Assembly: GCA_963716725.1 (NCBI GenBank)
Contig: CAVQUB010000005.1
Span: 320,001 to 384,000 of the forward strand
Source: an uncultured delta proteobacterium
Lineage (GTDB): Bacteria; Myxococcota_A; Polyangia; Polyangiales; Polyangiaceae
Direction of reading: 5' to 3'
DNA: 64,000 bases
Positions 1-18,128 of the stretch are shown one piece after another (position 1 is the stretch's first letter; each line of letters begins with the position of its first letter). The translations under genes and the position numbers were made by a program. The notes under the pieces were generated by a model. That model was not told where the DNA came from. It saw nothing but the letters and a program-made list of their open reading frames with translations, and did no database searches.

Positions 1-1274
1 CCTCGAGATTCGAGCCCTGCAGGACCCGCTCGACGACGCGTCCTCGAAGCCACACGACCTGCGCGAGCCAGGGGGCGAGCTCGTGCGGGGGCGGCTCACT
101 CTTCTTCCAAACTCGAACCAAGGGGCTCGAGACCACCGCTGCCACCGAAATGCGCCCGCCGCCTGCCGTGTCGAGCAGCGGCAGGTCGAGCAGCGCGCGG
201 ACTTCGGGGTCTGGTTCACCACCCGCCCGGAGAGTTTCGACGCAGCTGCACAAAGCAGCGCCCAGGGCGTCGAGCCACGCCCGCGGATCGTCCAGCAGAA
301 CTTCGACCCCGTCGGGGTGAGGCGCGCCGGAGGCGCGGGCCACGAGCGCCGCGAGCGCCTTGCGAAATGCGCTCTCGGCGGCTGGCCAGAGTTCACGGGC
401 CAGCGGTGTGTCTTCGCGCAGCGCGGAGCGCGAAGCGTTGGTCGGGAGCTCGTCCACGTCGACCACGACTCGAGCGGACACTGCCGTGTCAGAGGTCGGT
501 GAGAGGCCGTTCAAGGGCACCCAATCGAGGGACAGCAGGAGCACGCCGCGCTCCATCAACTCGACGCGAGCCGGTCCCCCTGCCGCGCCAATCTCGACGG
601 CAGCACGGCGGGCGCCGGGCAGGGTGAATGGAACTCGCAGGAGCGTCGGCAAGGGGAGCGGACGCACCACCGCAACGCCTGCGCAGAAGAGCGCGAGGGG
701 CGCCTCCCGAGTGTTCTCGAATCAGCAGCCTGACCTCTGGCGGAACGTCCCTCGACACCACGCTCCGCAACACTCCCAGTCCAAGCTTTCGCCGAACGTG
801 GATCTGGGTGCCCTGGGCGAAGGCCCCGTCCGGGATGGAGCACGAGACCGCGCGGAGCGGCGGGGACGACTCGCTCTCGTCGGCGATGGCCTCCGATGTG
901 AAGCGGACCGCGATGCCGGCTGATCCGTGGGTCGAGGTCACCGCGACGAAGCTCACGCCCAGGCCCAGCGCGGCGTTCACGCCCAGAGCCAGACAGCGCA
1001 GCGGCGCCGCGTGCTCGTCTTCGGCGTCGCTCAGTGCGAAGTCGAGCAAGCAGGCCAGGCGTTCTGCCGAGAGACTTGGTCCGTCGAAGGCGAAGCGAAT
1101 GTCGTCTGCGTCCCAGGTCAGGTTCATCGCGGTCGCCCCCAGCGCCACCGCGGCTCGAGCGAGCTCGAGGGGATAGGTCCGGAGATCGACCAACAGGTGT
1201 TCACGCAGCTTCGCGCGGGCGCGCCGAGCATCGACGCGGATCGAACCCCGGAGCACGATCTTGCGTTCGCTCAC
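1..1274 (-). CDS. HSP90/GHKL-fold protein with degenerate ATP-binding motifs; runs off the left edge; one +1 frameshift near 720
   Basis: GTG start at 1274 overlaps the upstream stop (GTGA). N-terminus YPLELARAAVALGAT parallels the GHKL N-box. Removing one T near 720 (attcgag to atcgag) continues the frame as ENTREAPLALF...VVVDVDELPTNASRSALRED, an HtpG-like middle-domain motif. Confidence 0.6.
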
Positions 1275-2968
1275 GATCCGCCCTCGGCGTAGTCCCTCAG
1301 CAACGCGTCGTTGACTCCAGACCCGAGCGGGCCGCGACGTTCGAGCAGCAGCATGCGAGCCAGCAGCTGTGCCGCGGCGCGAGGGTGCCGTCGCGCGCCC
1401 TCGCACGCGGCCCAGACTCCCGCGGAGCGACCGTCGAGCAGCAGCACCGCGCCCTCGCCCCAGCGCGACGCAGCGTGCGCCGCAGCCTCGAGGGAGACGA
1501 TGCCCCGAATCGGCGCCCGAGCGAGCACCAGGTGGTGGGGGAGAGCGCCCTGGACGCGTGCGAAGGTGACGCGCTCGACCTTCGTACCGGCCACGGCGAT
1601 GCAGCGCTGCACCTCGGCCACGAGCGCCAAACCCAGGCCCGAGACCTCGCCGGGCAGCGCCTCTTCGACCAGGTAGTGACGCTCGTAAGCGGCCTCGACG
1701 CCGCCTTTGGGGTGGAGCTCTGCGACTCGGTGCACGACGTCCGCGTGGGGACAGAGCACCACGGGTCGTCCTTGGGCTGCAAAGGCGTCGGTGAGCTGGC
1801 TCTGCTCCGTCGACGTGAGGATCGGCGCGCGCCGCGGGGTCCGTTTCGCGACGTCCGCGTGTGTCATCGCGCATTGCCCTTTGACCGCGCTCGCCAGCGG
1901 AAGCCAGACGCGATCGGCGCCGAGGCGGCACGGCTCGTGCGCAGCCGCGACCAAGAGCGCCAGGTAGTGAGCAAACGCGCCACCCGTGGCTACTTCTTGG
2001 GCCGCGACGCGCAGCGCTTCGGCCACGGCGGCCGGGAGCGCACGCCGCGCGAGCGCGCCTGCTCGAGCCAGCAAGTCGTCGAAGGCCGCTTCGCGCCGGA
2101 CGTTGTCGCGAGACAGGGTGTGTTTCAGTGCCGAACTCGAGATTTTTACGCGCAAACCCGCCAGGCCGGGGAACGCCTCGCTACTCGTCTCGTAGAGCGT
2201 GAGCCCCCGATTATAGAAGCCGACGAAGGCAGTCGCATTTTCGTAAGGCAGATCGTGAGGCGGCAAGTGCTCCGCGCCGATCCCGGCACCGAGCACGATG
2301 CTGCCTTCGCCGTCGACGTCCGTGACGCTCACCGCTGCGTGAACTTGGAGCGGTCGATCGAGCCTTTCGCGGGATGAGCCTCGCGGGTTGGCGTAGTCGG
2401 TCACCGAGAGCCAGATCGGCACTCGAGCGTGCCGGCACCAGCGCAGGAGGCTGTCCCTGACGAGCGCCGCGTGTGTGTCGAAGTCGCTCGATTCCATCGC
2501 GTGCGTCAGCGTCACGCTCGATCCCGAGAGCGGACGGGGCGGGATCTCCTCGACCACGTAGGAGTGGTCGGGCTTGATCGTCGCGCGCCACGCTCCGCCG
2601 TCGCGCCAAGTGTCGACGATCACGGTCTCGGGCGAGAGGGCCAAGACCGAGACAAAGCCGACGCCGTACTTGCCGATCTTGGTCGAGTCGCCCTCTTTGG
2701 ACGACGAGAACAGCGTCAGGAGCGCGCTCTCGATGATCTGCGGCGTCATGCCGACGCCGCTGTCCGTCACTCGGGTCCGCGTCTCACCGCTGGCCTCTCG
2801 GATGACGTCCACCTCGACGCTTGTGGTGCCCGCGTCCATGCTGTTTTGCACCAGCTCGCGCAAGAACGCGTAGGGGTCCGCAAACTGACGGACCATGTCG
2901 GAGACCAGCCCAGGCTTCCCGGGCTCCGGCGACGTGGTCCGGTCTTTCCCGGCGCGGTACGGGCTCAC
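1271..2968 (-). CDS. HSP90-like GHKL ATPase (HATPase_c family)
   Basis: N-box DPYAFLRELVQNSMDAG, G1 VTDSGVGMT, G2 IGKYGVGFVSVL and a middle-domain LKHTLSRDNV motif. Confidence 0.85.
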   Translation of the reverse strand: MSPYRAGKDRTTSPEPGKPGLVSDMVRQFADPYAFLRELVQNSMDAGTTSVEVDVIREASGETRTRVTDSGVGMTPQIIESALLTLFSSSKEGDSTKIGKYGVGFVSVLALSPETVIVDTWRDGGAWRATIKPDHSYVVEEIPPRPLSGSSVTLTHAMESSDFDTHAALVRDSLLRWCRHARVPIWLSVTDYANPRGSSRERLDRPLQVHAAVSVTDVDGEGSIVLGAGIGAEHLPPHDLPYENATAFVGFYNRGLTLYETSSEAFPGLAGLRVKISSSALKHTLSRDNVRREAAFDDLLARAGALARRALPAAVAEALRVAAQEVATGGAFAHYLALLVAAAHEPCRLGADRVWLPLASAVKGQCAMTHADVAKRTPRRAPILTSTEQSQLTDAFAAQGRPVVLCPHADVVHRVAELHPKGGVEAAYERHYLVEEALPGEVSGLGLALVAEVQRCIAVAGTKVERVTFARVQGALPHHLVLARAPIRGIVSLEAAAHAASRWGEGAVLLLDGRSAGVWAACEGARRHPRAAAQLLARMLLLERRGPLGSGVNDALLRDYAEGGS

Positions 2969-3133
2969 CTGGCCTTGTTAGGGTCGTTTCTGCCCAGATG
3001 GAATGGTCAGGTTCACCTGAGGCACGGCGATCTGTAAGCTCCCGCCCGCGGCGGGCGTTCTCGATGGCACCGCCAATTCTTCGAATCCTTTTTGTCTCTG
3101 ATGCGTCTCTTCGGTCGCATCACCAGGGAAACC

Positions 3134-4612
3134 ATGAACCACGGAACATATGTGCCGGCGTGGCGCGCGGTCGCGATCGCGGCGGCCCTCGCGCTCCCGG
3201 CCTGCGGCGGTAAACCCCCCGAATTGGCCAAGTCAGGCGAGTTCGCCGGGCCATCGAAGGCGGCTTCATCGAGCGCGAAACAGCGCGAGAAGGTGGCGAT
3301 CACGGTCTACAACCAGAACTTCGGCCTGGTGCGGGAGATCCGGAAGCTCGAGCTCGGCGAAGGCAAGGTGAGCCTCGAGTACCGAGACGTGTCCGCTCAC
3401 ATCCAACCCGAGACGGTGCACATCAAATCGCTCAGCGGGGACGACGCGCTGACGGTGATGGAGCAGAACTATCGCTACGATCTGCTCAACCCCCAGAAGC
3501 TGCTCGAGAAGTACGTCGACAAGAAGATCAAGGTCTACCGTTACAACGAGAAGCTCGGCCGCGAGGAGATGAAGGAGGCCAAGGTGCTGGCGGTGGAGCA
3601 AGGCACGGTGCTCGAGATCGACGGCGAGGTGACCTACGACGTCCCGGGTCGCTTCGCGTTCCCCGAGGTGCCAGCGAATCTCATCGCGAAGCCGTCGCTG
3701 GTCTGGCTCTTGGGCAGCCGGAAGACCCAGCAACGGGTCGAGGTCAGCTACCTGACCCAGAACCTGAACTGGGTGGCGGACTACGTGATGGTGGTCGGCG
3801 ACGACGACAAGGTCGGCGATCTGAATGGCTGGGTGACGCTGACCAACCAGAGCGGCACCGACTACGAGGACGCGCAGCTGAAGCTGGTGGCCGGCGACGT
3901 GCAGCGCGTGCAGCCGGAATCGACTCCCACCATGGACTACGCCGCTCAGGCAGAGGCTCCCGCGGCCCCGCGCGAGCAGTTCAAGGAAGAGGGCTTCTTC
4001 GAGTACCACCTGTACACGCTGGAGCGTTCGACCACGCTGCTCGACAAGGAGCAGAAGCAGGTGACCCTGCTCGAGGCCCACGACATCGGCATCAAGAAGA
4101 AGCTGATCTTCTGGGGCGCGAGCCACTACTACCGGGGCAACTACGGTCAGGTCGTGTCCAACCAGAAGGTCGGCGTGTACCTGGACATCAAGAACAGCAA
4201 GGACAACCGCCTGGGCATGGCCCTGCCGAAGGGCACGGTCCGGGTCTACAAGGCCGACAAGAGCGGGGCCAAGCAGTTCATCGGTGAAGATCGCATCGAC
4301 CACACGCCGCGGGACGAAGAGATCCGGATCAAGATGGGCGAGGCCTTCGACGTGGTCGGGGACCGGAAGCAGATGGAGTGGAACGCCATCGGCAGCTGTG
4401 TGTCCGAGAGTTCGTGGGAGATCGAGCTCCGCAACCACAAAGACGTGGCGGAGCGCGTGGAGGTCTTCGAACCCATCGGTGGCGATTGGTCGATGCTGCA
4501 GTCGAGCCATAAACACACCAAGAAAGACGCAAACACCTTCACCTTCGACGTCGAGGTGCCGTCGCGGGGCAAGACCAAGGTCACTTATCGGGTTCGGGTG
4601 AGGTGGTGCTGA
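3134..4612 (+). CDS. DUF4139-family protein, type A copy 1 (predicted lipoprotein)
   Basis: ATG 3134 after agggaa; signal peptide ending ALPAC; motifs ITVYNQNFGLVRE, EQNYRYDLL, YLTQNLNW.ADY, FFEYHLY, LPKG.VRVY, FIGED.IDHTP; ends VRVRWC. Confidence 0.85.
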   Translation: MNHGTYVPAWRAVAIAAALALPACGGKPPELAKSGEFAGPSKAASSSAKQREKVAITVYNQNFGLVREIRKLELGEGKVSLEYRDVSAHIQPETVHIKSLSGDDALTVMEQNYRYDLLNPQKLLEKYVDKKIKVYRYNEKLGREEMKEAKVLAVEQGTVLEIDGEVTYDVPGRFAFPEVPANLIAKPSLVWLLGSRKTQQRVEVSYLTQNLNWVADYVMVVGDDDKVGDLNGWVTLTNQSGTDYEDAQLKLVAGDVQRVQPESTPTMDYAAQAEAPAAPREQFKEEGFFEYHLYTLERSTTLLDKEQKQVTLLEAHDIGIKKKLIFWGASHYYRGNYGQVVSNQKVGVYLDIKNSKDNRLGMALPKGTVRVYKADKSGAKQFIGEDRIDHTPRDEEIRIKMGEAFDVVGDRKQMEWNAIGSCVSESSWEIELRNHKDVAERVEVFEPIGGDWSMLQSSHKHTKKDANTFTFDVEVPSRGKTKVTYRVRVRWC

Positions 4613-4614
4613 GC

Positions 4615-6033
4615 ATGAAGCGAGTCGCGTGGGTTCTGGTGCTGGCGGCGGCGGCGCCCAGCGCACTGGCGGCGCCGAAGAAGGTGTCCGGCGGCGAGCA
4701 GCGCCAAGAGGTGAGCATCACGGTCTACAACCAGAACTTCGGTCTGGTGCGCGAGGTGCGCGAGATCGAGGTGGGTACCGGCACCGTGGATCTCGAGTTC
4801 CGGGACGTGGCGGCGCAGATCCAACCGCAGACGGTGTCGATCAAGTCGCTGTCGGGCGCGAACTCGCTGTCGGTGCTCGAACAGAACTACCGCTACGATC
4901 TGCTCACGCCGCAGAAGCTCCTGGAGAAGCACGTCGGCAAGAAGGTGCGGGTCTGGCGCTGGAACGAGAAGCTCGGCAAAGACCAGCCCTTCGACGCCGA
5001 GGTCCTGAGCGTGGCTGGGGGCCAGACGGTGATGAAGATCGGCGGCGAGGTCACCTACAATTTCCCCGGGCGCATTGCCTTCCAGAGCGTGCCGGAGAAC
5101 CTGATGAGCAAGCCCACCCTGGTGTGGAAGCTCGAGAGCAAGCTGGCCAAGCAGAAGGTGGAGGCGACCTACCTGACCCAGAGCCTGAACTGGCGCAGCG
5201 ACTACGTGTTCGTGATCAACGACGCCGACAGCGCCGGGGATCTGACCGGCTGGGTCACGCTGATCAACAATTCGGGAGCCTCCTACAAGAACGCAAGGCT
5301 GAAGCTGGTCGCGGGCGACGTGCAGCGCGTGTCCGACGGAGACGACCACCGTCGACCCATGGGTGGCGCCGGGCGCATGTCCGCCAATCGCGAACGGCAG
5401 TTCTCCGAAGAGAGCTTCTTCGAGTACCACCTGTACACGCTGAGCCAACCGACGGACGTGCTCGAGAACGAGCAGAAGCAGGTCACGCTGCTCGAGGCCA
5501 AGGGCGCCAAGGTGCAGAAGAAGCTGATCTACTTCGGGCAGCAGTACTGGTACCGCAGCAAGTACGGCGAGGTGCAGAAGAACCAGAAGGTCGGCGTGTA
5601 CCTGGATCTGCAGAACAGCAAAGACAACGGCCTGGGCATGCCCCTGCCCAAGGGCATGGTGCGGGTCTACAAGGCCGACAAGAGCGGCGCCAAGCAGTTC
5701 ATCGGCGAAGACCAGATCGACCACACGCCGCGCGACGAGAAGGTGCGCATCAAGATGGGCGAGGCCTTCGACGTGGTGGGCGACCGCAAGCAGATGGAAT
5801 GGCGCACGCTCGGCAGGTGCACGTCGGAGAGCAGCTGGGAGATCGAGCTCCGGAACCACAAAGACAAGGCCAGCCGGGTCGAGGTCTTCGAGCCCATCGG
5901 CGGCGACTGGACCATGGTCGAGAGCACGCACAAACACGACAAGAAGGACGCGCACACTTTCACTTTCGACGTGAACGTGCCGGCCAACGGCAAGACCAAG
6001 ATCAAATACAAGGTGAGGGTGAAGTGGTGCTGA
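4615..6033 (+). CDS. DUF4139-family protein, type B copy 1 (Sec signal, no lipobox)
   Basis: TGA-GC-ATG junction with copy A1; signal MKRVAWVLVLAAAAPSALA; same family motifs. Confidence 0.85.
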   Translation: MKRVAWVLVLAAAAPSALAAPKKVSGGEQRQEVSITVYNQNFGLVREVREIEVGTGTVDLEFRDVAAQIQPQTVSIKSLSGANSLSVLEQNYRYDLLTPQKLLEKHVGKKVRVWRWNEKLGKDQPFDAEVLSVAGGQTVMKIGGEVTYNFPGRIAFQSVPENLMSKPTLVWKLESKLAKQKVEATYLTQSLNWRSDYVFVINDADSAGDLTGWVTLINNSGASYKNARLKLVAGDVQRVSDGDDHRRPMGGAGRMSANRERQFSEESFFEYHLYTLSQPTDVLENEQKQVTLLEAKGAKVQKKLIYFGQQYWYRSKYGEVQKNQKVGVYLDLQNSKDNGLGMPLPKGMVRVYKADKSGAKQFIGEDQIDHTPRDEKVRIKMGEAFDVVGDRKQMEWRTLGRCTSESSWEIELRNHKDKASRVEVFEPIGGDWTMVESTHKHDKKDAHTFTFDVNVPANGKTKIKYKVRVKWC

Positions 6034-6035
6034 GC

Positions 6036-7454
6036 ATGAGGCGAGTCGCGTGGGTGTTGGTGCTGGCGGCGGGGGCGCCGAGCGCGCTGGCGGCACCGAA
6101 GAAGGTGTCCGGCGGCGAGCAGCGCCAAGAGGTGAGCATCACGGTCTACAACCAGAACTTCGGCCTGGTGCGCGAGGTGCGCGAGATCGAGGTGGGCACC
6201 GGCACGGTGGACCTCGAGTTCAGGGACGTGGCGGCGCAGATCCAGCCGCAGACGGTGTCGATCAAGTCGCTGTCCGGGGCGAACGCGCTGTCGGTGCTCG
6301 AGCAGAACTACCGCTACGATCTGCTCACGCCGCAGAAGCTCCTGGAGAAGCACGTCGGCAAGAAGGTGCGGGTCTGGCGCTACAACGAGAAGCTTGGCAA
6401 GGACGAGCCCTTCGACGCGGAGATCCTGAGCGTGGCCGATGGCCAGCCCGTGATGAAGATAAACGGCGAAGTCACCTACAACTTTCCCGGCCGCATCGCG
6501 TTTCCGAGCGTGCCCGAAAACCTGATGAGCAAGCCCACCCTGGTGTGGAAGCTCGACAGCAAGCTGGCCAAGCAGAAGGTCGAGGCGACCTACCTGACCC
6601 AGAGCCTGAACTGGCGCAGCGACTACGTGTTCGTGATCAATGACGCCGACAGCGCCGGGGATCTGACCGGCTGGGTCACGCTGGTGAACAACTCGGGGGC
6701 CTCGTACAAGAACGCCCGCCTCAAGCTGGTCGCCGGCGACGTGCAGCGCGTGAGCCCCCGCGACGAAATGGACGACGAGCGCAGCTACAAGAAGTCAGCC
6801 GAGTCCAGCGGTGCCCGTCGCTTCGCCGAAGAGAGCTTCTTCGAGTACCACCTGTACACGCTGAGCCAACCCACCGACGTGCTCGAGAACGAGCAGAAGC
6901 AGGTGACGCTGCTGGAAGCCAAGAACGCCAAGGTGCAGAAGAAGCTGATCTACTTCGGGCAGCAGTACTGGTACCGCGGCCGGCATGGCGAGGTGCAGAA
7001 GAACCAGAAGGTCGGCGTGTACCTGGACGTCCAGAATACCAAGGCCAACGGCCTGGGCATCCCGCTGCCCAAGGGCACGGTGCGAGTCTACAAAGCCGAC
7101 AAGAGCGGGGCCAAGCAGTTCATCGGCGAGGACAACATCGACCACACGCCGCGGGACGAGAAGGTGCGCATCAAGATGGGCGAGGCCTTCGACGTGGTCG
7201 GCGACAGGAAGCAGATGGAGTGGCGCACGCTCGGCACCTGCAGCTCGGAGAGCACCTGGGAGATCGAGCTCCGGAACCACAAGGACCAAGCCAGTCGGGT
7301 CGAGATCTTCGAGCCCATCGGCGGTGACTGGACCATGGTGGAGAGCACGCACAAACACGACAAGAAGGACGCGCACACCTTCACCTTCGACGTGAACGTG
7401 CCGGCCAACGGCAAGACCAAGATCAAGTACAAGGTGAGGGTGAAGTGGTGCTGA
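6036..7454 (+). CDS. DUF4139-family protein, type B copy 2
   Basis: TGA-GC-ATG junction; this is the C-terminal half of ORF 4629..7454; nearly identical to B1 except for the variable segment. Confidence 0.85.
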   Translation: MRRVAWVLVLAAGAPSALAAPKKVSGGEQRQEVSITVYNQNFGLVREVREIEVGTGTVDLEFRDVAAQIQPQTVSIKSLSGANALSVLEQNYRYDLLTPQKLLEKHVGKKVRVWRYNEKLGKDEPFDAEILSVADGQPVMKINGEVTYNFPGRIAFPSVPENLMSKPTLVWKLDSKLAKQKVEATYLTQSLNWRSDYVFVINDADSAGDLTGWVTLVNNSGASYKNARLKLVAGDVQRVSPRDEMDDERSYKKSAESSGARRFAEESFFEYHLYTLSQPTDVLENEQKQVTLLEAKNAKVQKKLIYFGQQYWYRGRHGEVQKNQKVGVYLDVQNTKANGLGIPLPKGTVRVYKADKSGAKQFIGEDNIDHTPRDEKVRIKMGEAFDVVGDRKQMEWRTLGTCSSESTWEIELRNHKDQASRVEIFEPIGGDWTMVESTHKHDKKDAHTFTFDVNVPANGKTKIKYKVRVKWC

Positions 7455-7459
7455 ATCGA

Positions 7460-8912
7460 ATGTCGAAGACCTTGGCCTTGGCCTCGCTCCTGGCGGCTAC
7501 GGCCTGCGGAGGCAAAGCGCCAGAGCTGGCCAAGGGCGGCGAGTTTGCGGGGGCTTCGAAGGCGGCGACGTCGAGCGCGAAGCAACGCGAGAAGGTGGCG
7601 ATCACTGTCTACAACCAAAACTTCGGTCTGGTACGCGAGATCCGAAAGCTCGAGCTCGGCGAAGGCAAGGTGAGCCTCGAGTACCGAGACGTGTCCGCGC
7701 ACATCCAACCCGAGACCGTGCACATCAAGTCGCTGGATGGCGACGATGTCTTGACGGTGATGGAGCAGAATTACCGCTACGACTTGCTCAGCCCGCAGAA
7801 GCTGCTCGAGAAGTACGTGGACAAGAAGATCAAGGTCTACCGCTACAACGAGAAGCTCGGCCGCGAGGAGATGAAAGAGGCCAAGGTGCTGGCCGTGGAG
7901 CAGGGCACGGTGCTCGAGATCGACGGCGAGGTGACCTACGGAGTCCCGGGTCGCCTCGCGTTCCCCGAGGTGCCCGCGAATCTCATCGCGAAACCGTCGC
8001 TGGTGTGGCTACTCGGTAGCCGCAAGGCCCAGCAGCGCGTCGAGATCAGCTACCTGACGCAGAACCTGAACTGGGTGGCGGACTACGTGATGGTGGTCGG
8101 CGACGACGACAAGGTCGGCGATCTGACCGGCTGGGTGACGCTGACCAACCAGAGCGGCACCGACTACGAGCAGGCGCAGCTGAAGCTGGTGGCCGGTGAC
8201 GTGCAGCGCGTTCAGCCGACCGACGTGACGACGACCCTCAGCCGCGGTCGAGGCGGCAAGTCGCGGGCCAAGGACCAGTTCAAGGAAGAAGGCTTCTTCG
8301 AGTACCACCTGTACACGCTAGAGCGCCCGACCACGCTGCTCGACAAGGAGAAGAAGCAGGTGAGCCTGCTCGAGGCTCACGGCATTGGCGTGAACAAGAA
8401 GCTGATCTTCTGGGGCGCGAACTACTACTACCGCGGCAACTACGGCCAGGTCGTGGCCAACCAGAAGGTCGGCGTCTACCTCGACATCAAGAACACCAAG
8501 CGCAACCGCCTGGGCATGGCGCTGCCGAAGGGCACCGTCCGGGTCTACAAGGCGGACAAGAGCGGAGCCAAGCAGTTCATCGGTGAGGACAACATCGACC
8601 ACACACCGCGAGACGAAGAAGATCCGCATCAAGATGGGCGAGGCCTTCGACGTGGTGGGCGACCGCAAGCAGATGGAGTGGAACGCGCTGGGCAGCTGCG
8701 TGTCCGAGAGCTCGTGGGAGATCGAGCTCCGCAACCACAAGGACGTGGCCGAGCGCGTGGAGGTCTTCGAGCCCATCGGTGGGGACTGGGAAATCGTCCA
8801 GTCGAGCCACAAGCACACCAAGAAAGACGCGCACACCTTCACCTTCGATGTCGAGGTGCCGTCGCGGGGCAAGACCAAGGTCACCTACCGGGTGCGGGTG
8901 AAGTGGTGTTGA
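7460..8912 (+). CDS. DUF4139-family protein, type A copy 2 (predicted lipoprotein); +1 frameshift near 8620
   Basis: Signal MSKTLALASLLAATAC; gaagaagatc has one extra A relative to gaagagatc in copy A1; frame resumes IRIKMGEAFDVVG...VRVKWC in ORF 8583..8912. Confidence 0.8.
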
Positions 8913-8914
8913 GC

Positions 8915-10334
8915 ATGAAGCGGGTCGCGTGCGTGTTGGCGCTGGCCGCGGCGGCGCCGAGCGCGCTGGCGGCGCCGAAGAAGGTGTCCGGGGCCGACCA
9001 GCGTCAGGAGGTGAGCATCACGGTCTACAACCAGAACTTCGGTCTGGTGCGGGAGGTGCGCGAGATCGAGGTGGGCACCGGCACGGTGGACCTCGAGTTC
9101 AGAGACGTCGCGGCGCAGATCCAGCCGCAGACGGTGTCGATCAAGTCGCTGTCGGGCGCGAACTCGCTCTCGGTGCTCGAGCAGAACTACCGCTACGATC
9201 TGCTCACGCCGCAGAAGCTGCTTGGAGAAGCACGTCGGCAAGAAGGTGCGGGTCTGGCGCTGGAACGAGAAGCTCGGCAAGGACGAGCCCTTCGACGCCG
9301 AGGTCCTGAGCGTGGCCGGGGGCCAGACGGTGATGAAGATCGGCGGCGAGGTCACCTACGACTTCCCCGGGCGCATCGCCTTCCCGAGCGTGCCCGAGAA
9401 CCTGATGAGCAAGCCCACCCTGGTGTGGAAGCTCGACAGCAAGCTGGCCAAGCAGAAGGTCGAGGCGACCTACCTGACCCAGAACCTGAACTGGCGCAGC
9501 GACTACGTGTTCGTGATCAACGACGCCGACAGCGCCGGAGATCTCACCGGCTGGGTCACGCTGGTCAACAACTCGGGCGCCTCGTACAAGAACGCCCGGC
9601 TGAAGCTGGTCGCCGGCGACGTGCAGCGAGTGAGCGCCGGCAGCGGCGAGGACTCCGACCTGGGCATGCTCCAATCGGCGCAGCCGACCACCGGCGCGCG
9701 CTTCCAAGAAGAGGGCTTCTTCGAGTACCACCTGTACACGCTGGGCCAGCCCACGGACGTGCTCGAGAACGAGCAGAAGCAGGTGACGCTGCTCGAGGCC
9801 AAGAACGCCAAGGTGCAGAAGAAGCTGATCTACTTCGGGCAGCAGTACTGGTACCGCGGCCGGTACGGCGAGGTGCAGAAGAACCAGAAGGTCGGCGTGT
9901 ACCTCGACGTCCAGAACACGAAGGCCAACGGCCTGGGCATCCCGCTGCCCAAGGGCATCGTGCGGGTCTACAAGGCCGACAAGAGCGGCGCCAAGCAGTT
10001 CATCGGCGAGGACAACATCGACCACACGCCGCGGGACGAGAAGGTGCGCATCAAGATGGGCGAGGCCTTCGACGTGGTGGGCGATCGCAAGCAGATGGAA
10101 TGGCGCACGCTCGGCGCTTGCACCTCGGAGAGCACCTGGGAGATCGAGCTCCGAAACCACAAGGACCAGGCCAGCCGGGTCGAGATCTACGAGCCCATCG
10201 GCGGCGACTGGACCATGGTCGAGAGCACGCACAAACACGACAAGAAGGACGCGCACACCTTCACCTTCGAGGTGAACGTGCCGGCCAACGGCAAGACCAA
10301 GATCAAATACAAGGTCCGCGTGAAGTGGTGCTAG
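8915..10334 (+). CDS. DUF4139-family protein, type B copy 3; +1 frameshift near 9222
   Basis: TGA-GC-ATG junction; cttggag has one extra T relative to ctggag in B1 and B2; the remainder is ORF 9222..10334. Confidence 0.8.
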
Positions 10335-10341
10335 TCGCGGG

Positions 10342-10485
10342 TCAGGCCCGGCGGCGACGCCGGCCCAGCCCAGCGCCGATCCCCAGGCTGATGAGCAGCG
10401 CAGCGAGCCCCGCCGGCCCGCCGGCTCTGCGCGTGCTGCAGCCGCTGCTCTCGTCACTGGTCGAGGAGCACGAACTCGCGTTCAT
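10342..10485 (-). pseudogene. Orphan C-terminal remnant of a MYXO-CTERM sorted protein
   Basis: Reads SDESSGCSTRRAGGPAGLAALLISLGIGAGLGRRRRRA-stop (GC motif, hydrophobic helix, Arg cluster). The upstream sequence is transposase DNA. Confidence 0.6.
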
Positions 10486-10611
10486 ACTCCAGGATGCTGA
10501 CCTGCAACCGCATCGGCAAAAAATGTACCTGACTTCGCACGACGACGAGTTCAGGGGGAAGCGCGACGACGTGCTGCGCGTCTACTACGAGACGCCAAAG
10601 AAGGAGCAATC

Positions 10612-11184
10612 GTGTGCGTCGACGAGAAGACCGGCATCCCGGCGCTCGAACGCCGCTACGCTGACATTCCGATGGTGGCCGGACAGCCCGTCCGCCGCGA
10701 ATTCGAGTACGTCCGCCATGGCACGCTCTGCTGGATGGGAGCGCTCGATGTTCGCCGCGGCAAGCCGTTCGGCTTCATCTCGGACGGGCACGACAGCGAC
10801 ACCTTCGTCGAGCTACTCGACGTCATCGAGGCGGTCTACCCGCCGGGTCGTGGCCACATCATCATGGACGATCTCTCCGCCCACGACACGCCCGACGTGA
10901 ACGAGTGGTTTGACGAGCACCCACGCTGGATGCGCCACTTCACGCCGAAGCACGCGTCGTGGCTCAACCAGATCGAGTGCTGGTTCTCGATCCTCACGCG
11001 CCAACTTCTCGCACGAGGCTCGTTCACGCCAACCGACGACCTCGCGGCGAAGATCGACGCGTACGTCGCGTGGTATCTGCAGACCGACCGACCCTTTCGC
11101 TGGTCGTACCGCCCCAAGTCGTGGGCCGAATCCCGAAAAACCCCCTCACTTTCGGCGAAGAAAGCCGCAACTGTTTCGGAGTGA
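10612..11184 (+). pseudogene. IS630 DDE transposase catalytic domain
   Basis: Motifs CVDEK, EYVRHGT, IIMDDLSAH and FTPKHASWLNQIECWF; frameshift near 10600. Confidence 0.85.
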
Positions 11185-11201
11185 GGCCCGACCACACGGG
11201 G

Positions 11202-11579
11202 ATGGCACAGGAAGGGCGAAAGCTTGGAAGATTTGGGGATGGGACGGACGAGGTGATCGGTGCGCTGATCGAGGTGCATCGGCATCTCGGTCCAGGGCTG
11301 ATGGAATCCGCATATGAGGCCTGTCTATCTGCCGAGCTGTCGGAAAACGACGGCTCAAGTTCGAGCGGCAGCGACCGCTACCAATCCGCTACAAAGGCGT
11401 ACACCTTGACTGCGCCTATCGCCTCGACCTGGTCGCTTTCAGATCGTATCCTCCTGGAGCTCAAGGCGGTCGAGCGGCTGCTCCCGATTCACGAAGCGCA
11501 GGTCATCACCTATCCGCGCCTTTCGCGGTTGCCCGTCGGCCTGCTCGTCAACTTCAGGCCTGCGGACGCTAACGCCTGA
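11202..11579 (+). pseudogene. GxxExxY family protein (PD-(D/E)XK-like nuclease) with two compensating frameshifts
   Basis: VIGALIEVHRHLGPGLMESAYE (GxxExxY); shifted middle FERQRPLPIRYKGVHLDCAYRLDLV; then ILLELKAVERLLPIHEAQVITY...GLLVNF. Confidence 0.85.
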
Positions 11580-11675: not shown

Positions 11676-13598
11676 CTAGGGCAGCGTCGTGATCGCGACG
11701 TTGGCGGCCGCGCTCCCGCCGATGGCGGCGGGAGTGGTCCACGTGCTGTTGATGAGCCGTGAGTGATAGGCCACGCCATCGGACTCGATGAAGGCGACTT
11801 CGACGGCAGCGGTCGCCGCGCCTCTGGTGATCGCAGGCGACGACGTGCTGTTCACGTTCGGTGACGAGATGCCCGCCGGGCTCGACCAGGAGCTGCCCGA
11901 GAAGAACGAGGTGTAGAGCTTGCCGTCGGTGCCCTTGAACGCCAGCGCCGCGCCGCCGCCGGGCAGCGCCGCGAGCGAAGGTCGCGCGCCCGTGATCGCG
12001 CCGGTGATGGCGGCCGGCGTCGTCCAAACACCGCTTGTTCGAGTGGTGAAGAGCAGGTTGCCGGACTGGATTTCGGCGAAGACCACCAGAAGCTCTGGCC
12101 CGGTGCTCAGCGCAACGACCGCCGGGACGATGTAGTAGTCCACCGCGCCGCTGATGAACTGCGGGGACTGCCAGACCGCGCTCACGCGGTCGTCGGAGGA
12201 CAAGGCTCCATCCTGTTCACCGCTCGCATAGACGGCCACGGGCGTGGAGCCGATCACGGTCAGATCTGCGCCGCTAAAGCCGTACTGGTGGTTGCCGCTC
12301 GGCCCGATCGCCTCGGGAGCCGAGAACGTGCCCGCGAACGACATGAAGTAGTGCTTGTCGTCCGTGCCATGGAACGCGAGATGAACGGCCGTCGGGCCAA
12401 CCGCGAGCGCGGGACGGGATTGCGTCGTGATGCCAGTCCCGACGTTGGCGAGTTGGGTCCACCCGCTCGGGGTCCAGGCCGAGTACTGCAGGGCTTGGTC
12501 GTTGACGTGGTTGATCTCGGTGAAACGAACCGCCGCGGCCGCGCCCGCGCCGCCCACCGAGACTAGCGAGACTCCATCGACGGACTTGCTCCCGAGCGAG
12601 CTCGTCGACCAGCTGCCGCCGACGACCAGATCCGCGCCCAGCACCGCGGTCGCGCTGCCGACCACCGCGAGCACGGTGGGACACAGCGGGCAGGTGCCGC
12701 CGCAGTCGACTCCGGTCTCAGCACCGTTTTTCACGCCGTCGGAGCAGGTCGGGGCGTTGCAGGTGTGAGCCGTCGTGTTGCACACCAGCGACGCGCACTG
12801 GCTGCTCGAATTGCACTCGACGCACACGCCGGCGCCGGTGCAGAACTTGCCGCCGTTCTGGGTGCAGGTGCTGTTGATGGTCTTGTTCGGATTCGACGGC
12901 GTGCCGTTGGAGCACAGGTCGTCCGTGCACTGATTGCCATCGACGACGGGGTCGGCGTCGTCGTTCTGGCTGCTGACCGTGCCCGCCCCGTCGCACATGA
13001 CCTTCTTGCAGTCGCTCGGGACCTGCTGTGGTGCAGGGCCTGCTGTGACGAAGGACATCCCGCAGGCGCCCGTGCTGCAGGTGCGGGTCTGGCACGCGTT
13101 ATCCTGGCCCGGACACTCGGACGCTGTGGTGCATCCGCCGGTGCCGCCGGTGCCTCCGGTCGCAGAGCCGCCGGTTCCCGCGGCGCCGCCGGTGCTGCCA
13201 CCGCTGCCCGCCGCGCCGCCGGTGCTGCCGCCGGTTCCCGCGGCGCCGCCGGTGCTGCCACCGCTGCCCGCCGCGCCGCCAGTGCTGCCACCGGTTCCCG
13301 CGGCGCCGCCGGTGCTACCGCCGCTGCCGGCCATGCCACCGCTGCCGGCAACGCCACCGGTTCCACCGCTGCCGCCTGAGCCCCCGCTGGTGGTTCCACC
13401 GCTGCCGCCCGCGCCACCGGTTCCACCGCTGCCGCCTGAGCCCCCGCTGGTGGTTCCACCGCTGCCGCCCACCGATGACCCGGTACCGCCGGTCGAGTCA
13501 TCGATCTCGTCCCGCTCCGGCTTCGTGATCAGCGAGCACCCAATGAGCGGCATGCCGACGGCACCCACGAACCCAATCCGAACCAGCAACGAGCGCAT
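11676..13598 (-). CDS. Lipoprotein: Gly/Ser/Thr linker, Cys-rich repeats, C-terminal beta-propeller-like repeats
   Basis: Signal ending PLIGC; GGSTGGAAG repeats; CSDGVKNGAETGVDCGG motif; repeated W..P..I / PALA units. Confidence 0.75.
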   Translation of the reverse strand: MRSLLVRIGFVGAVGMPLIGCSLITKPERDEIDDSTGGTGSSVGGSGGTTSGGSGGSGGTGGAGGSGGTTSGGSGGSGGTGGVAGSGGMAGSGGSTGGAAGTGGSTGGAAGSGGSTGGAAGTGGSTGGAAGSGGSTGGAAGTGGSATGGTGGTGGCTTASECPGQDNACQTRTCSTGACGMSFVTAGPAPQQVPSDCKKVMCDGAGTVSSQNDDADPVVDGNQCTDDLCSNGTPSNPNKTINSTCTQNGGKFCTGAGVCVECNSSSQCASLVCNTTAHTCNAPTCSDGVKNGAETGVDCGGTCPLCPTVLAVVGSATAVLGADLVVGGSWSTSSLGSKSVDGVSLVSVGGAGAAAAVRFTEINHVNDQALQYSAWTPSGWTQLANVGTGITTQSRPALAVGPTAVHLAFHGTDDKHYFMSFAGTFSAPEAIGPSGNHQYGFSGADLTVIGSTPVAVYASGEQDGALSSDDRVSAVWQSPQFISGAVDYYIVPAVVALSTGPELLVVFAEIQSGNLLFTTRTSGVWTTPAAITGAITGARPSLAALPGGGAALAFKGTDGKLYTSFFSGSSWSSPAGISSPNVNSTSSPAITRGAATAAVEVAFIESDGVAYHSRLINSTWTTPAAIGGSAAANVAITTLP

Positions 13599-14500: not shown

Positions 14501-15490
14501 TCAAGTACGGGTGACGACGCGATTGCGCCCGAGCCGTTTTGCCTCGTACATCGCCGCGTCCGCCGCCGCCAAGAGCGCGTCGGGGCCAGGGTACGAGTAC
14601 TCGGGACCCGCGAAGGCAATGCCGATGCTGACGGAGAGGTGGGGGACGTCTTCGAGGGGGAGCGACAGGTTTGCGATGTGCGCGCGCAGGCGTTCTGCGA
14701 GGATCATGGCGTTTTCGCGGGTGACCCGCCGCGCGACGACCACGAACTCGTCCCCACCGAAGCGCGCCAGCAGGTCTTCGGGTCGAAGCACGCGCTGCAT
14801 GGCTGCCGCCACCACCCGCAGCACGGCGTCGCCCATGTGGTGGCCCTGGGTGTCGTTGATCTGCTTGAAGCGGTCGATGTCGACCAGAAACACCGCGATG
14901 GTGTCGGAGTGACGTTGGGCGAAGGAAACCTCACTCGCGAGGCGCTCCACCAGGTAACGCCGGTTGTGCAGCGACGTCAGCGCGTCCCGCACGGTCGAGT
15001 CGAACAGGGCCCGCGCCGACTCTTCTTCGACCTCGTCTGCCAGCGACAGTTTGAGCAGCGTGTGGCCTCCGAGTCGGATGCGCGACCCAGCCCCGAGGCG
15101 GGTGGGCTCTCGGATGCGGCGCTCACCGACGAAGGTCCCGTTGGTGCTGCCGAGGTCCTCGACCCAGATGTGCCCCTCACGCAGGAAGATCCGGGCGTGG
15201 GCCCAGCTCAGGCCCGGATCGTCGAGCACGAAGCCCGAGCTCCCGCCGCGACCGATCACGATTCCCCCCTCTTCGACGCGGATCACGCGGCCGAGGGGAT
15301 CGCCTCGGAGTACCGTCAACAGGTAGCGGTCGCCGGTCGGAGTCGGCTGCTCCGCAGCGACGGCTTCGGCGATCTCGGCGATGCTCGGGGCGCGGATCTT
15401 GGTCGTGCTGATCCGAAGCGGTCGCCGCGACGTACGACGAGAAGTGTCGCGCGGACGGCGGCTGGTCGGGATCATGGCGCTCGAGTTCAT
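14501..15490 (-). CDS. FHA-domain diguanylate cyclase
   Basis: FHA motifs IGRG, SWAHA and DLGSTNGT; DALTSLHNRR, DIDRFKQIND, RPED I-site and RFGGDEF. Confidence 0.9.
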   Translation of the reverse strand: MNSSAMIPTSRRPRDTSRRTSRRPLRISTTKIRAPSIAEIAEAVAAEQPTPTGDRYLLTVLRGDPLGRVIRVEEGGIVIGRGGSSGFVLDDPGLSWAHARIFLREGHIWVEDLGSTNGTFVGERRIREPTRLGAGSRIRLGGHTLLKLSLADEVEEESARALFDSTVRDALTSLHNRRYLVERLASEVSFAQRHSDTIAVFLVDIDRFKQINDTQGHHMGDAVLRVVAAAMQRVLRPEDLLARFGGDEFVVVARRVTRENAMILAERLRAHIANLSLPLEDVPHLSVSIGIAFAGPEYSYPGPDALLAAADAAMYEAKRLGRNRVVTRT

Positions 15491-15624: not shown

Positions 15625-17001
15625 TCACCAGCGACGCCCGGGCGGGGCGTTCTTCAACACTGCGGTTCCGTGCACTTCTTCGTTGGCTATGCTCTTCGAG
15701 ATTTCGTCGTACAGCGCGCGCATGCGACGGAAGTCTTCGCGACGGTGCTCGGTGAGGGTCTTGCGTTCCTTCGGATCGTTGGCGAGGTCGTACATCAGCC
15801 AGCGTTCGTCGTCCCCCCGGGAGATGAGCTTGAGATCTCCGTCGATGATCGCGCGCCGTCGATCTTGCAGGTTGTCCCGAGGCAGGTCCGCGACGACAGG
15901 CCGTGGCGGAAGGCTGCCGCCAAAAAGCTCGGGCACTAGGCTCTTGCCGCGGAGGGGCGGCGCGATCTCGACGCCCATCAGCTCGAGGATGGTCGGGGAA
16001 AGGTCAATGTGGCTGCGCGGGGTGTCGATGCGTCGGGGCGCCGCGTCGGGCACCAGGAAGAGGAGCGGAACGTGGATCAACGACTCCCAGAGCTCGTAGC
16101 CGTGCCGCACCTGGCCGTGCTCGCCGAAGCTCTCGCCATGATCGGCGCTGACGATCACCGCTGTACGCTTGCCCCACTCCTGCTTCTCGATCCATGAGAT
16201 CAGGTCGCCCACCGCGCGATCGGTGAACCACATCTCTGCATCATAGAGATCACGCGGCTCGTCCCCGAAGACTGGCGCGTCCTCGTGTTCGATGTATTCG
16301 TGGTGCGGATCCATGTAGTGGAAGTAGGCAAACAGGCGCCGCTCGCCGCTGGGGTCGGCGTTCTTGGCCAGGATCCGCTTGGCGGCAGCGGTCAGCCGCT
16401 CGCTCGTCGGCTTTGGCTCGGGGTTGTTGTAGATCGTGCCCGAGAGCACCAAGTAGTCGTCGAACCCTTGCTTCATCGACGGGTGGTAGAAATAGGCGTG
16501 GGCGTGGGCGGCGATGGCGCGATGTCCGGCCGCCTGTAGTCGCTCGCCCAAGAACAAATTCTCGGGGTACCACTGGGTGAAGAAGTACCCCGTCCGCGCC
16601 ATCTCGCTCGCGTACTTTCCGACCAAGAGCGGCGCAGCCGAGCGGGCGGTCACGCTGGAGAGCGAATAGGCGCGCGTGTAGCTCACGCTGCGCTTCTCGA
16701 GAGCCGTGAGGCGCGGCGCGATCTTCCGTCGGTAGCCTGCCCAGGGCATGTCAGCGCGCATGCTGTCGATCAGAATCAACACCACGTTGAGCGGGGCGCG
16801 GCTCGGCTCCGGAGGTCCCGCGTCCACCGCGACTTTGAGGTCGTCGGGCGGGGTTTCTTGGCTCGAGGTGCCCGGGGCGGAGGCTGCGCTCGGGCTCGGG
16901 GCCGTCGCCTCGGTGCCAGTCGTCGACTTGCTACGGCTGGTGCTGCAGGCGCCCAAGCCGAGGGCCAGCGCTAGCGTGAGCTCGAGCAGCAGGCGCGGCA
17001 T
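15625..17001 (-). CDS. Sulfatase/alkaline-phosphatase superfamily lipoprotein
   Basis: NVVLILIDSMRAD, HYMDPH, SADHGE and HVPL motifs; no canonical CxPxR (reads SVTARS); LGAC lipobox. Confidence 0.8.
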   Translation of the reverse strand: MPRLLLELTLALALGLGACSTSRSKSTTGTEATAPSPSAASAPGTSSQETPPDDLKVAVDAGPPEPSRAPLNVVLILIDSMRADMPWAGYRRKIAPRLTALEKRSVSYTRAYSLSSVTARSAAPLLVGKYASEMARTGYFFTQWYPENLFLGERLQAAGHRAIAAHAHAYFYHPSMKQGFDDYLVLSGTIYNNPEPKPTSERLTAAAKRILAKNADPSGERRLFAYFHYMDPHHEYIEHEDAPVFGDEPRDLYDAEMWFTDRAVGDLISWIEKQEWGKRTAVIVSADHGESFGEHGQVRHGYELWESLIHVPLLFLVPDAAPRRIDTPRSHIDLSPTILELMGVEIAPPLRGKSLVPELFGGSLPPRPVVADLPRDNLQDRRRAIIDGDLKLISRGDDERWLMYDLANDPKERKTLTEHRREDFRRMRALYDEISKSIANEEVHGTAVLKNAPPGRRW

Positions 17002-17003
17002 GC

Positions 17004-18128
17004 TCACCACTCGAAGATGGCGTAGTGCTCGACGGGCGTTCGGTTCATCAGTCCGTCGATGAAGATCAGCGTGGCCGTCTCGGGGGTGCCGGCTGCCCCC
17101 GCCGCCCCACCGCGATAGTCGACCCGATCGCCGTCCGTGGTCAGCTGCCTCAACTCGCCCGGCTGGGGCTCACCTCGTGCCCAAGCTCCGAGGAGCTCGC
17201 GGCACTTGGCGTCGCTGACGTGACCGATGACCTGGGTGAGCCCCAAGGGCAGGCGCCGCGGATCGAAGCGGCGGCCGAGCGGGTCGGACAGGTCGTGTCC
17301 GCGATTCGACGGCGCCTCGGGATTCGCTGGTCGATGATAGAGCATCCCGCCGCCCTCGCCCCGAGCCATGTGTCCCGGGCGATGGAGTGACGCGACCACG
17401 AGGCCACCCTGCACGTGAGCTGCAACCGCGGCGTCGAGGGCGGTATTGAGCGCGTTCGCGACGGCGACTGCTCCGCCGCGCTGGGGCGCGTTGATGGACT
17501 CGAGATGGTCGCGAGTCACGCCGGCGTGACAGAAGAGCAGGCGGTCGTCGGCCGCATGCGCGAGGCGCAAGCGGCGCGCGCGCAGCAACGCCCAGACGAG
17601 GTCGCGTTGCGCGACGCTGAAGGCCGAGAGGTCGCGCGCCGCGACCTCGGCCGTGGCGAAGCTGGGGTGAGCGTTGCAAAACTCTCGCTCGAGCTCCCGG
17701 TCCGGATCGCCAGCGCGATAGGCCAGGAGGGCCCGCTCGTGGGCCACGCTGAACGAAGCGTCGTCGAACTCGGCCAGCTCGCCGACTCGACCCAGATCGT
17801 GGTTGCCCGCGATCAACCTGACCTGATCGGGCGGGTGGCTCGCGAGCCAGCTCAGAATCGCCAGCCCGTCCCGCGCCGCGTCGAAGCGTTCCGCGCTCGA
17901 GCCGAAGTCGAAGTGATCGCCGATCGAGACGAACTCGACGTCGGCCGCGAGGCGTCCGTCGTCGCCGAGCAGGCCGTGCCGCTCCAGCACCTCTAAGAAC
18001 CTGCGGAGCGGTGCTTGGGGATCGCCTACCGCCACCCGGCGCGTGCGGCGGAGTCCATCCGCGGCGCAGGGTTGCCACTGCCCGGACGCGAGGTCGCGAG
18101 CGCGGCGTTCAGCGAGCTCGGCGCGCAC
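17004..18128 (-). CDS. Calcineurin-like metallophosphoesterase
   Basis: VGDPQA, IGDHFD, GNHD, CHAG and IGH motifs. Confidence 0.8.
   Translation of the reverse strand: MRAELAERRARDLASGQWQPCAADGLRRTRRVAVGDPQAPLRRFLEVLERHGLLGDDGRLAADVEFVSIGDHFDFGSSAERFDAARDGLAILSWLASHPPDQVRLIAGNHDLGRVGELAEFDDASFSVAHERALLAYRAGDPDRELEREFCNAHPSFATAEVAARDLSAFSVAQRDLVWALLRARRLRLAHAADDRLLFCHAGVTRDHLESINAPQRGGAVAVANALNTALDAAVAAHVQGGLVVASLHRPGHMARGEGGGMLYHRPANPEAPSNRGHDLSDPLGRRFDPRRLPLGLTQVIGHVSDAKCRELLGAWARGEPQPGELRQLTTDGDRVDYRGGAAGAAGTPETATLIFIDGLMNRTPVEHYAIFEW

Follow-up and report, generated by a model that had tools for sequence, protein, structure and literature searches.

A tandem DUF4139 array in a Polyangiaceae genome with similar scaffolds and paralogue-specific loops

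How can neighbouring genes be nearly alike over most of their length and still carry, at one and the same position, a short peptide that differs from copy to copy? This question is raised by an array of five DUF4139 genes in a 64,000-nucleotide stretch of DNA (the window) from an uncultured delta proteobacterium of the family Polyangiaceae (assembly GCA_963716725.1, contig CAVQUB010000005.1, positions 320,001 to 384,000). DUF4139 proteins form a very large family whose function is unknown, and the array provides a clean natural experiment, in which everything has been homogenised save an insert of 22-23 amino acids, where the paralogues may or must differ. A preliminary description of the locus considered the array as a panel of hypervariable loops in a conflict system. 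The explanation that we consider probable is different: the scaffolds underwent partial concerted evolution, while old, paralogue-specific loops persisted on a disordered insert that is the subfamily's own. The pattern thus results from an evolutionary process that is already known, acting here on a disordered insert of the whole family.

The five genes and their loops

The five genes lie head to tail on the + strand at window positions 3134-10334 (3092-10334 counting an upstream TTG) in the order A-B-B-A-B, and comprise two type A lipoprotein genes and three type B signal-peptide genes. A1 (3134..4612) encodes a protein of 492 amino acids from the ATG at 3134, an in-frame TTG being also present upstream at 3092. 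B1 (4615..6033; 472 amino acids) starts 2 nt past the A1 stop and is followed by B2 (6036..7454; 472 amino acids), A2 (7460..8912) and B3 (8915..10334), the last two being read through 1-base insertions near 8621 and near 9220-9222, respectively. The spacing of the genes is 2 nt (junction TGA-GC-ATG), except for the 5 nt that precede A2, and a GAGGTGG-like motif is located shortly upstream. The gathering score of Pfam DUF4139 (PF13598), 31.8 bits, is exceeded by A1 (36.5 bits), B1 (35.3), B2 (39.9) and B3 (37.8), and A2 gives a partial match of 21.9 bits in one frame, for which its frameshift is responsible. A Pfam scan of A1, B1 and B2 at E<=0.01 found nothing besides DUF4139.

The type A proteins begin with a lipoprotein signal peptide in which the Cys is followed by GG (..AC-GG; in A1, ..LALPAC-GG), and the type B proteins with an ordinary signal peptide ending in ALA, followed by AP. 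Two Cys residues are invariant, C402 and the C-terminal C472 (B numbering), and beyond these Cys occurs only in the lipobox. The Cys pair would fit an oxidising compartment, and together with the lipoprotein and Sec signal peptides it supports the predicted envelope location that had been proposed earlier.

The five co-oriented paralogues had been described as highly alike within each type, and this is borne out by within-type DNA identities of 0.85-0.91 (A1-A2 0.854, B1-B2 0.891, B1-B3 0.900, B2-B3 0.911); between the types, A1 and B1 share 0.686. In 60-nt windows, the within-type identity is 0.75-1.00 off the loop and 0.26-0.58 in the two windows that cover it, and each gene contains one island of 66-69 nt that is unalignable within type. 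The loop coordinates and peptides of the preliminary description translate exactly as it gave them, with lengths of 23, 23, 23, 22 and 23 amino acids. All on the + strand, the loops are those of A1 (3911..3979; QPESTPTMDYAAQAEAPAAPREQ), B1 (5332..5400; ..HRRPMGGAGR..), B2 (6753..6821; ..DDERSYKKSAESS..), A2 (8213..8278; QPTDVTTTLSRGRGGKSRAKDQ, 22 amino acids) and B3 (9633..9701; SAGSGEDSDLGMLQSAQPTTGAR). Among the ten pairs of loops, no significant nucleotide similarity was found in any frame, the best pair reaching a z of 3.0, which was attained by 2/300 shuffles. The origin of new loops from a compensated frameshift, i.e. from the same DNA read in another frame, was rejected because no such similarity exists.

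Loop lineages and probable scaffold homogenisation

All six other genomes searched within the genus carry arrays of A and B genes, in the arrangements A-B-A-B, A-B plus A-B-B, and (B)-A-B-B. Across these genomes, four loop types recur: alpha (PASPxPxYYAQAEA), beta (GFGPNDATIRxRP), gamma (RYPxGGA) and delta (GGEDYxYxR..KKSAE). The A1 loop is of the alpha type, which is also found in the relatives G002 and G003 (z 6.4 and 5.1; 0/300 shuffles). The gamma-type loop of B1 matches loops of G002 and G004 (z 4.5-4.6; 0/300 shuffles), and the delta-type loop of B2 reaches z 3.5 to a loop of G002 (2/300 shuffles). The eight best loop pairs (z 4.5-8.9, 0/300 shuffles each) are all between genomes, while the best of 29 within-genome pairs has a z of 3.1.

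In contrast to the loops, the loop-free scaffolds cluster by genome. This was observed with FastTree, and the support for the grouping by genome in IQ-TREE is 100/100 for G002, 100/100 for G004, 97/98 for G003b and 90/89 for the window's genome. Approximately unbiased tests reject clades that follow the loop types (p 2.4e-6, 3.1e-5, 4e-51 and 9e-92), the tested groups having been defined from the loops, though after the first tree had been viewed. The synonymous divergence (dS) of the scaffolds is 0.11-0.35 within a genome and 0.34-0.52 between the window's genome and G002, where it is no lower for loop-matched pairs. Paralogue pairs of G002 differ in only 40 scaffold columns, which are spread on both sides of the loop. 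In addition, the informative sites of B1, B2 and B3 fall into partitions of 48, 46 and 26 and form 69 runs versus 82.5 expected (runs test, P 0.0044). The marks of gene conversion are therefore present, with scaffolds clustering by genome, loops clustering across genomes and sites being mosaic among copies. The opposite grouping of scaffolds and loops indicates partial concerted evolution.

The loops had been described as hypervariable, a view that is not supported, because the loop types are kept across species and strains, a result that the preliminary description had itself named as speaking against its proposal. P0002 keeps the B2 loop at 21/23 positions, P0004 and P0006 contain near-copies of the B3 loop (21/23), and the A2 loop is identical in P0274. 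The A1-type loop recurs among type A homologues, and a check of 107 A1 homologues showed the motif [GS]-Y-[YA]-A-x-x-E-A ... R-P-Q in the A loops listed, down to 77% identity. Between matched orthologues, the ratio of nonsynonymous to synonymous divergence (dN/dS) of the loops is 0.32-0.84 (pooled 0.46), as calculated from loop pairs that are short, non-independent and near saturation, and that of the scaffolds is about 0.1-0.17. The loops are thus under relaxed constraint and not under positive selection, and with values that never exceed 1 the earlier proposal of diversifying selection finds no support.

These observations suggest the following course of events. The unit in Polyangiaceae would be a translationally coupled pair, in which lipoprotein A is followed by the secreted paralogue B, and the array would be a tandem expansion of this unit. 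Within each genome, gene conversion between paralogues would time and again make the gene bodies uniform on either side of the loop. The loops would represent old paralogue-specific lineages that predate the species of the genus, that escaped homogenisation and that are subject to a relaxed but real purifying selection. Each loop may serve its own paralogue in a specific way, most likely as a flexible peptide on the common scaffold that is used for docking or is accessible to proteases, and A possibly anchors B in an envelope complex. At the level of the family, we propose a function in envelope-stress modules of the extracytoplasmic function (ECF) type.

Surface-protein paralogues that undergo partial concerted evolution but retain variable loops are known, for example the Opa proteins of Neisseria. 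As in the array, there are several Opa paralogues per genome, the scaffold is kept alike by recombination, and short variable loops define the individual copies. Different from Opa, the loop types of the array are stable lineages common to several species, and no phase-variation repeats were seen in the array. Its scaffold is also not a beta-barrel but a soluble or lipid-anchored beta-sandwich with one disordered internal insert. Thus, a constant scaffold with an unrelated loop can arise by concerted evolution and does not need hypermutation, and the survival of distinct loops through homogenisation hints that the loops matter.

The insert in the wider family and competing explanations

The loop is not an invention of the array but a disordered insert of the whole subfamily, located between two beta strands. 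With B1 as query, at least 8000 candidates were obtained, all at E<=1e-5, which are named only 'DUF4139 domain-containing protein' or 'hypothetical protein' and mostly derive from Polyangiaceae or Myxococcales metagenome-assembled genomes (MAGs). All of the 66 aligned close homologues (63-90% identity) contain a segment of 20-25 amino acids between VAGDVQRV and FxEExFFEYH, and the column entropy in this alignment is 3.1-3.3 bits in the loop versus at most 1.35 bits in the rest of the mature protein. In the full library, 7182 representatives match at E<=1e-3, and a wide alignment (n=128; 34-63% identity) was built from B1, A1 and 126 of the best 150 of these representatives. Here, the segment is 19-26 amino acids long in 122/128 sequences (full range 17-35) and is biased towards Ala (20.6% versus 8.3% overall), Met (8.2% versus 1.7%) and Pro (9.6% versus 4.5%), with Arg being enriched as well.

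Relatives were found in at least 599 stretches of genome contigs from Polyangiaceae, Gemmatimonadota, Nitrospirota, Rokubacteria/Methylomirabilota, Thermodesulfobacteriota and a few archaea. Among 33 loci with full 7-kb flanks, 24 contain a single gene, 9 a pair and none three or more genes; by record title, the nine pair loci belong to Polyangiaceae, Myxococcales or 'delta proteobacterium' MAGs, except for one of the nine that is titled only Proteobacteria. Among the sampled loci, arrays of at least three genes are confined to this genus. The loop characterises the whole subfamily, of which most sampled genomes have one copy only, and is no special device of this array. In the literature searched, the term DUF4139 is rare, being used in only 4 papers, and appears in no title or abstract.

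AlphaFold (AF2) models of both protein types are all-beta, with a mean predicted local distance difference test (pLDDT) of 82 and a predicted TM-score of 0.67 for B1 and a pLDDT of 78 for A1; the most conserved block comprises B1 residues 349-393. In agreement with the disordered segment that had been suspected, the models predict a pLDDT below 50 for B1 residues 238-269 and A1 residues 257-290. The B1 loop itself has values of 27-44 and is the sole long internal stretch of the B1 model under 50. For the C-terminal beta-sandwich, the matches are CBM2 and glycoside-hydrolase accessory domains (Z 8.0-8.7 over 82-93 residues, root-mean-square deviation (rmsd) 2.1-3.6), for the first 270 residues they are ribophorin I and the N-domain of M1 aminopeptidases (Z 7.2-7.7), and a small barrel of the Sm-like kind is made up by residues 95-161 (Z about 7). 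The top matches in Foldseek are chains of ribophorin I or Ost1 (6s7o_E, E 4.5e-6, probability 0.97). With VIA, 6s7o_E was matched with Z 7.2 over 141 residues (rmsd 4.4), and aminopeptidase N with Z 7.4-7.7 over about 155 residues (rmsd about 5.3; model residues 22-294). The likeness to the luminal domain of ribophorin I/Ost1 and to the M1 aminopeptidase N-domain is one of fold only, as TM-scores are 0.12-0.16, Z is in the common range of the tool, and neither a sequence relation nor a catalytic domain is present. A profile search against PDB sequences gave no match at E<=1. Deducing a function from the fold was rejected, because Foldseek and VIA give generic beta-sandwich matches (Z 7-8.7) and the ESM Atlas gives unnamed clusters (0.80-0.86).

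The genomic context of homologues in other phyla may point to envelope stress. For this analysis, 45 loci from other phyla were scanned, 12 of them on both strands and 33 for same-strand upstream open reading frames (ORFs) of at least 150 amino acids; 11 myxobacterial loci and all loci with less than 2.8 kb of upstream flank were left out. In 9/45 loci, an ECF sigma factor and/or a zf-HC2/DUF2275 anti-sigma factor is encoded directly upstream of the DUF4139 homologue on the same strand. Both were recognised in L074, L078, L080, L086, L092 and L114, only the sigma factor in L091 and L102, and only the anti-sigma factor in L075. These loci belong to Nitrospirota, Methylomirabilota/Rokubacteria and deltaproteobacterial MAGs. 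The gene order ECF sigma - anti-sigma - DUF4139 was not mentioned in the literature searched, but supplements on ECF classification might list it.

According to a review, muiA of P. aeruginosa is transcribed by the ECF sigma factor SbrI, and both muiA and the SbrI sigma factor are induced by osmotic shock, by D-cycloserine and by overproduction of the periplasmic protease CtpA (PMC10418997). Proteomic data indicate that MuiA is more abundant in biofilms (PMC7603352). No member of the family other than MuiA is known to have been studied, and as an envelope-stress target MuiA fits the sigma/anti-sigma context of the nine loci. The sigma/anti-sigma/DUF4139 order in several phyla and the presence of MuiA in the SbrI regulon thus provide a first testable setting for the family, envelope stress.

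MuiA belongs to the TIGR02231 family, to which the array proteins are related only distantly. The window's own genome encodes six more distant DUF4139 proteins of 670-870 amino acids (C12:277155-279158, C2:429547-431658, C2:454890-457007, C15:444612-446987, C33:42340-44451 and C11:448493-451096), most of which have lipoprotein signals. Most of the six also contain very long, Gly/Ala/Pro-rich low-complexity inserts at the same topological place as the loop, and C-terminal tails that are long, charged and helical-looking. The protein encoded at C12:277155-279158 is both the top PF13598 match (128 bits) and a member of TIGR02231 (249 versus a cut-off of 112.6 bits). Array and MuiA-family proteins are both predicted to reside in the envelope, begin with a lipoprotein or other signal peptide and share the topological position of a low-complexity insert. 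In contrast, the array proteins have no TIGR02231 match (A1 and B1 at E<=0.01; B1 at E<=10), are about 470-490 instead of 670-870 amino acids long, contain a short insert of fixed length, lack the long helical tail as judged from the sequences, and occur as A/B pairs. At E<=10, NCBIfam gave chance-level matches (E 0.05-0.09) to unrelated models only.

Several observations weigh against partial concerted evolution with persisting loops, or against the functions that we connect with it. The pooled dS of matched-orthologue loops (1.14) exceeds that of the scaffolds (0.34-0.67); the loop types may be older alleles and not strict orthologues, or short alignments may inflate dS. The escape of the loops could also be mechanical, with conversion tracts stopping at non-homology and without any part played by selection. 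The order of the loop types differs between the window's genome and G002, which means that rearrangement occurred too. As modelled, the fold points to no function, its structural matches being middling (Z 7-8.7). The predicted A1-B1 complex passes weakly, with a score of 0.33 versus 0.10 in the best of three controls. The score mark is reached by 58/80 solved complexes and 2/110 mismatched pairs, but at scores of 0.60 or less it is reached by only 7/80 solved complexes and by both passing mismatches; contact agreement between the A1-B1 runs is at least 91%, and the partner pLDDT is at least 77. Finally, an ECF context was seen in none of the Gemmatimonadota loci scanned, and the 64 kb of the window contain no Sigma70_r4_2 match, an ECF module being thus not recognised at the array.

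The loop could alternatively be a neutral spacer, in which only the length matters as a tether between strands and the sequence drifts, while conversion cannot cross the 66-69 nt of non-homology and the extra copies are dosage duplicates. The tightly kept length of the segment, its unconserved sequence and low-complexity composition, the low pLDDT and a dN/dS well above that of the scaffold would all agree with this idea. We nevertheless consider it unlikely, since the loop dN/dS is below 1 (pooled 0.46), the A-loop motif is recognisable down to 77% identity, the gamma, delta and beta motifs are shared across species, and at least four loop types have persisted through repeated homogenisation. 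Conversion that spans short heterology is mechanically possible, so the persistence of these loop types suggests some selection.

The panel of protease-bait or recognition loops, positively selected in a conflict system and triggering trapping or signalling upon cleavage or binding, is quite unlikely. Several features are in line with it: the loops are predicted to be disordered and are chemically distinct, arrays of at least three genes were found only in this genus, and the fact that distinct loops outlast their homogenised flanks could reflect selection that favours a diverse panel. ECF sigma/anti-sigma systems, in whose operons relatives of the array genes reside, are usually switched by regulated proteolysis. 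The induction of MuiA and its sigma factor by CtpA overproduction, as given in PMC10418997, points in the same direction. On the other side, species and strains share conserved loop types, loop dN/dS stays at 0.32-0.84, and single-copy homologues of many phyla contain the same insert, of low complexity and rich in Ala, Met and Pro. Nor was any macroglobulin or thioester machinery detected: Pfam reports only DUF4139 and no MG, A2M or TED domains for A1, B1 and B2 at E<=0.01, and the C.EQ thioester motif is absent from all five proteins. A1, B1 and B2 match no family of PADLOC-DB 2.0 at E<=0.01, and conserved neighbouring genes are missing among ORFs of at least 200 amino acids. Without PADLOC matches, conserved partner genes or a thioester motif, the conflict system postulated in the preliminary description is not borne out, and the signatures expected of a bait panel, i.e. 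rapid turnover, dN/dS above 1 and trap machinery, are absent. The bait region of alpha-2-macroglobulin is likewise disordered and exposed and varies in sequence from paralogue to paralogue, the array loop being so characterised from models. The array proteins differ from alpha-2-macroglobulin by the absence of A2M/MG/TED domains and of C.EQ, by having two conserved Cys residues in the mature protein, and by a loop with a fixed length of about 22 amino acids and a dN/dS below 1.

A more speculative possibility, which we regard as a long shot, is that DUF4139 proteins serve as periplasmic decoy or sensor substrates in ECF-type circuits, in which envelope proteases or anti-sigma partners engage the disordered insert. 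In the panel of up to five copies in this genus, selection would then keep the loops distinct against conversion, so that every copy reports on or buffers another protease or partner.

Alternatively, each genome may have duplicated the genes recently and independently, the loops being exchanged laterally or converging afterwards, which would explain why the scaffold tree groups paralogues by genome. This scenario is very improbable, because it requires that the same four loop types were gained separately by precise short-patch replacement or that peptides of 22-24 amino acids converged. Eight cross-genome loop pairs furthermore beat all 300 shuffles, and the mosaic sites of B1, B2 and B3 show recombination between copies. 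Programmed hypervariation by a diversity-generating retroelement or silent cassettes, which would generally show as paralogues that are constant but for one variable segment with sharp borders, is largely refuted and was rejected, because the 84%-complete genome contains no second loop copy (blastn-short at E<=0.05 returned the loops themselves and three 17-18-nt chance matches), no reverse transcriptase is encoded near the array (the sole two RVT_1 matches are on contigs C1 and C13 and not on the window's contig C5), and the differences between the loops affect all bases and not just adenines, the loops also being stable between strains.

Neighbouring genes and frameshifts

Upstream of the array, a divergent GHKL-type ATPase is encoded at 1271..2968 on the - strand (HATPase_c_3, E 1.7e-14), which is also found in the upstream flank of the G002 array (L026, E 4e-13). 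Among ORFs of at least 200 amino acids, a limit that small ECF sigma genes could escape, this ATPase is the only neighbour common to arrays of the genus (window's genome and G002). Its matches to PADLOC TmtA are generic ATPase-motif matches only, and it is probably outside the array's system. A consensus scan for promoters and terminators gave no promoter-like sites and terminator-like sites at chance level.

The 3' border of the array is marked, directly downstream, by an ORF for an IS630-type DDE transposase at 10612..11184 on the + strand (DDE_3, E 7.5e-21). Transposase-like N-terminal text is present at about 10400-10900 in a frame that differs from that of the DDE_3 ORF, which indicates that an IS630-type element was split by a frameshift, either real or from assembly. 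The end of the transposase ORF is overlapped by a gene for a PD-(D/E)XK nuclease family protein at 10959-11579 (+; PDDEXK_3, E 1.4e-22). It is followed at 11676-13598 (-) by a predicted lipoprotein of 640 amino acids with long Gly/Ser/Thr-rich repeats (GGSGG.., GSTGGAAGTGG..), a Cys-rich segment and a large C-terminal domain, for which no Pfam family was found at E<=1e-5. Further downstream, an FHA-GGDEF diguanylate cyclase and a secreted sulfatase are encoded at 14501-15490 (-) and 15625-17010 (-), neither of which has a visible relation to the array.

A2 and B3 each have a surplus base in the window's assembly, at about 8621 and 9220. For four runs (X1, X5, X9 and X11, from four studies), Logan contigs were compared with window positions 7400-10400. 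The extra base at 8621 is missing from the contigs of 4/4 runs at full depth, and one X9 contig of 192 nt (8459-8651) is identical to the window apart from this base. The extra base at 9220/9222 is missing in 3/3 runs that cover the position. The best-matching run may be the window's own source, and its agreement is then not independent support. P0274 represents an intact protein of 483 amino acids with the A2 loop, recorded from 15 contigs, and the scaffold dN/dS of A2 and B3 is as low as in the intact paralogues. The two frameshifts are so either assembly errors or very recent private mutations, and assembly errors are expected because independent contigs lack both extra bases.

Broken copies were also observed in the relative G006. 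On its contig C19 (L034, about 4349-5794), the B copy beside A is broken by several frame changes, and a second DUF4139 cluster at G006:C13:198684-203078 contains in-frame TGA and TAG stops. This indicates either decay in some lineages or an indel-rich assembly. Contig joints at 9632-9711 of the window ('skips 72-78') most simply reflect contigs of other B paralogues that were placed on B3, and nothing was drawn from them. Near-identical sequences, with pieces at least 99% alike, are present in metagenome contigs from biofilters, wastewater and sediment in four studies, which suggests that the organism or close strains of it are widespread in engineered and natural water systems.

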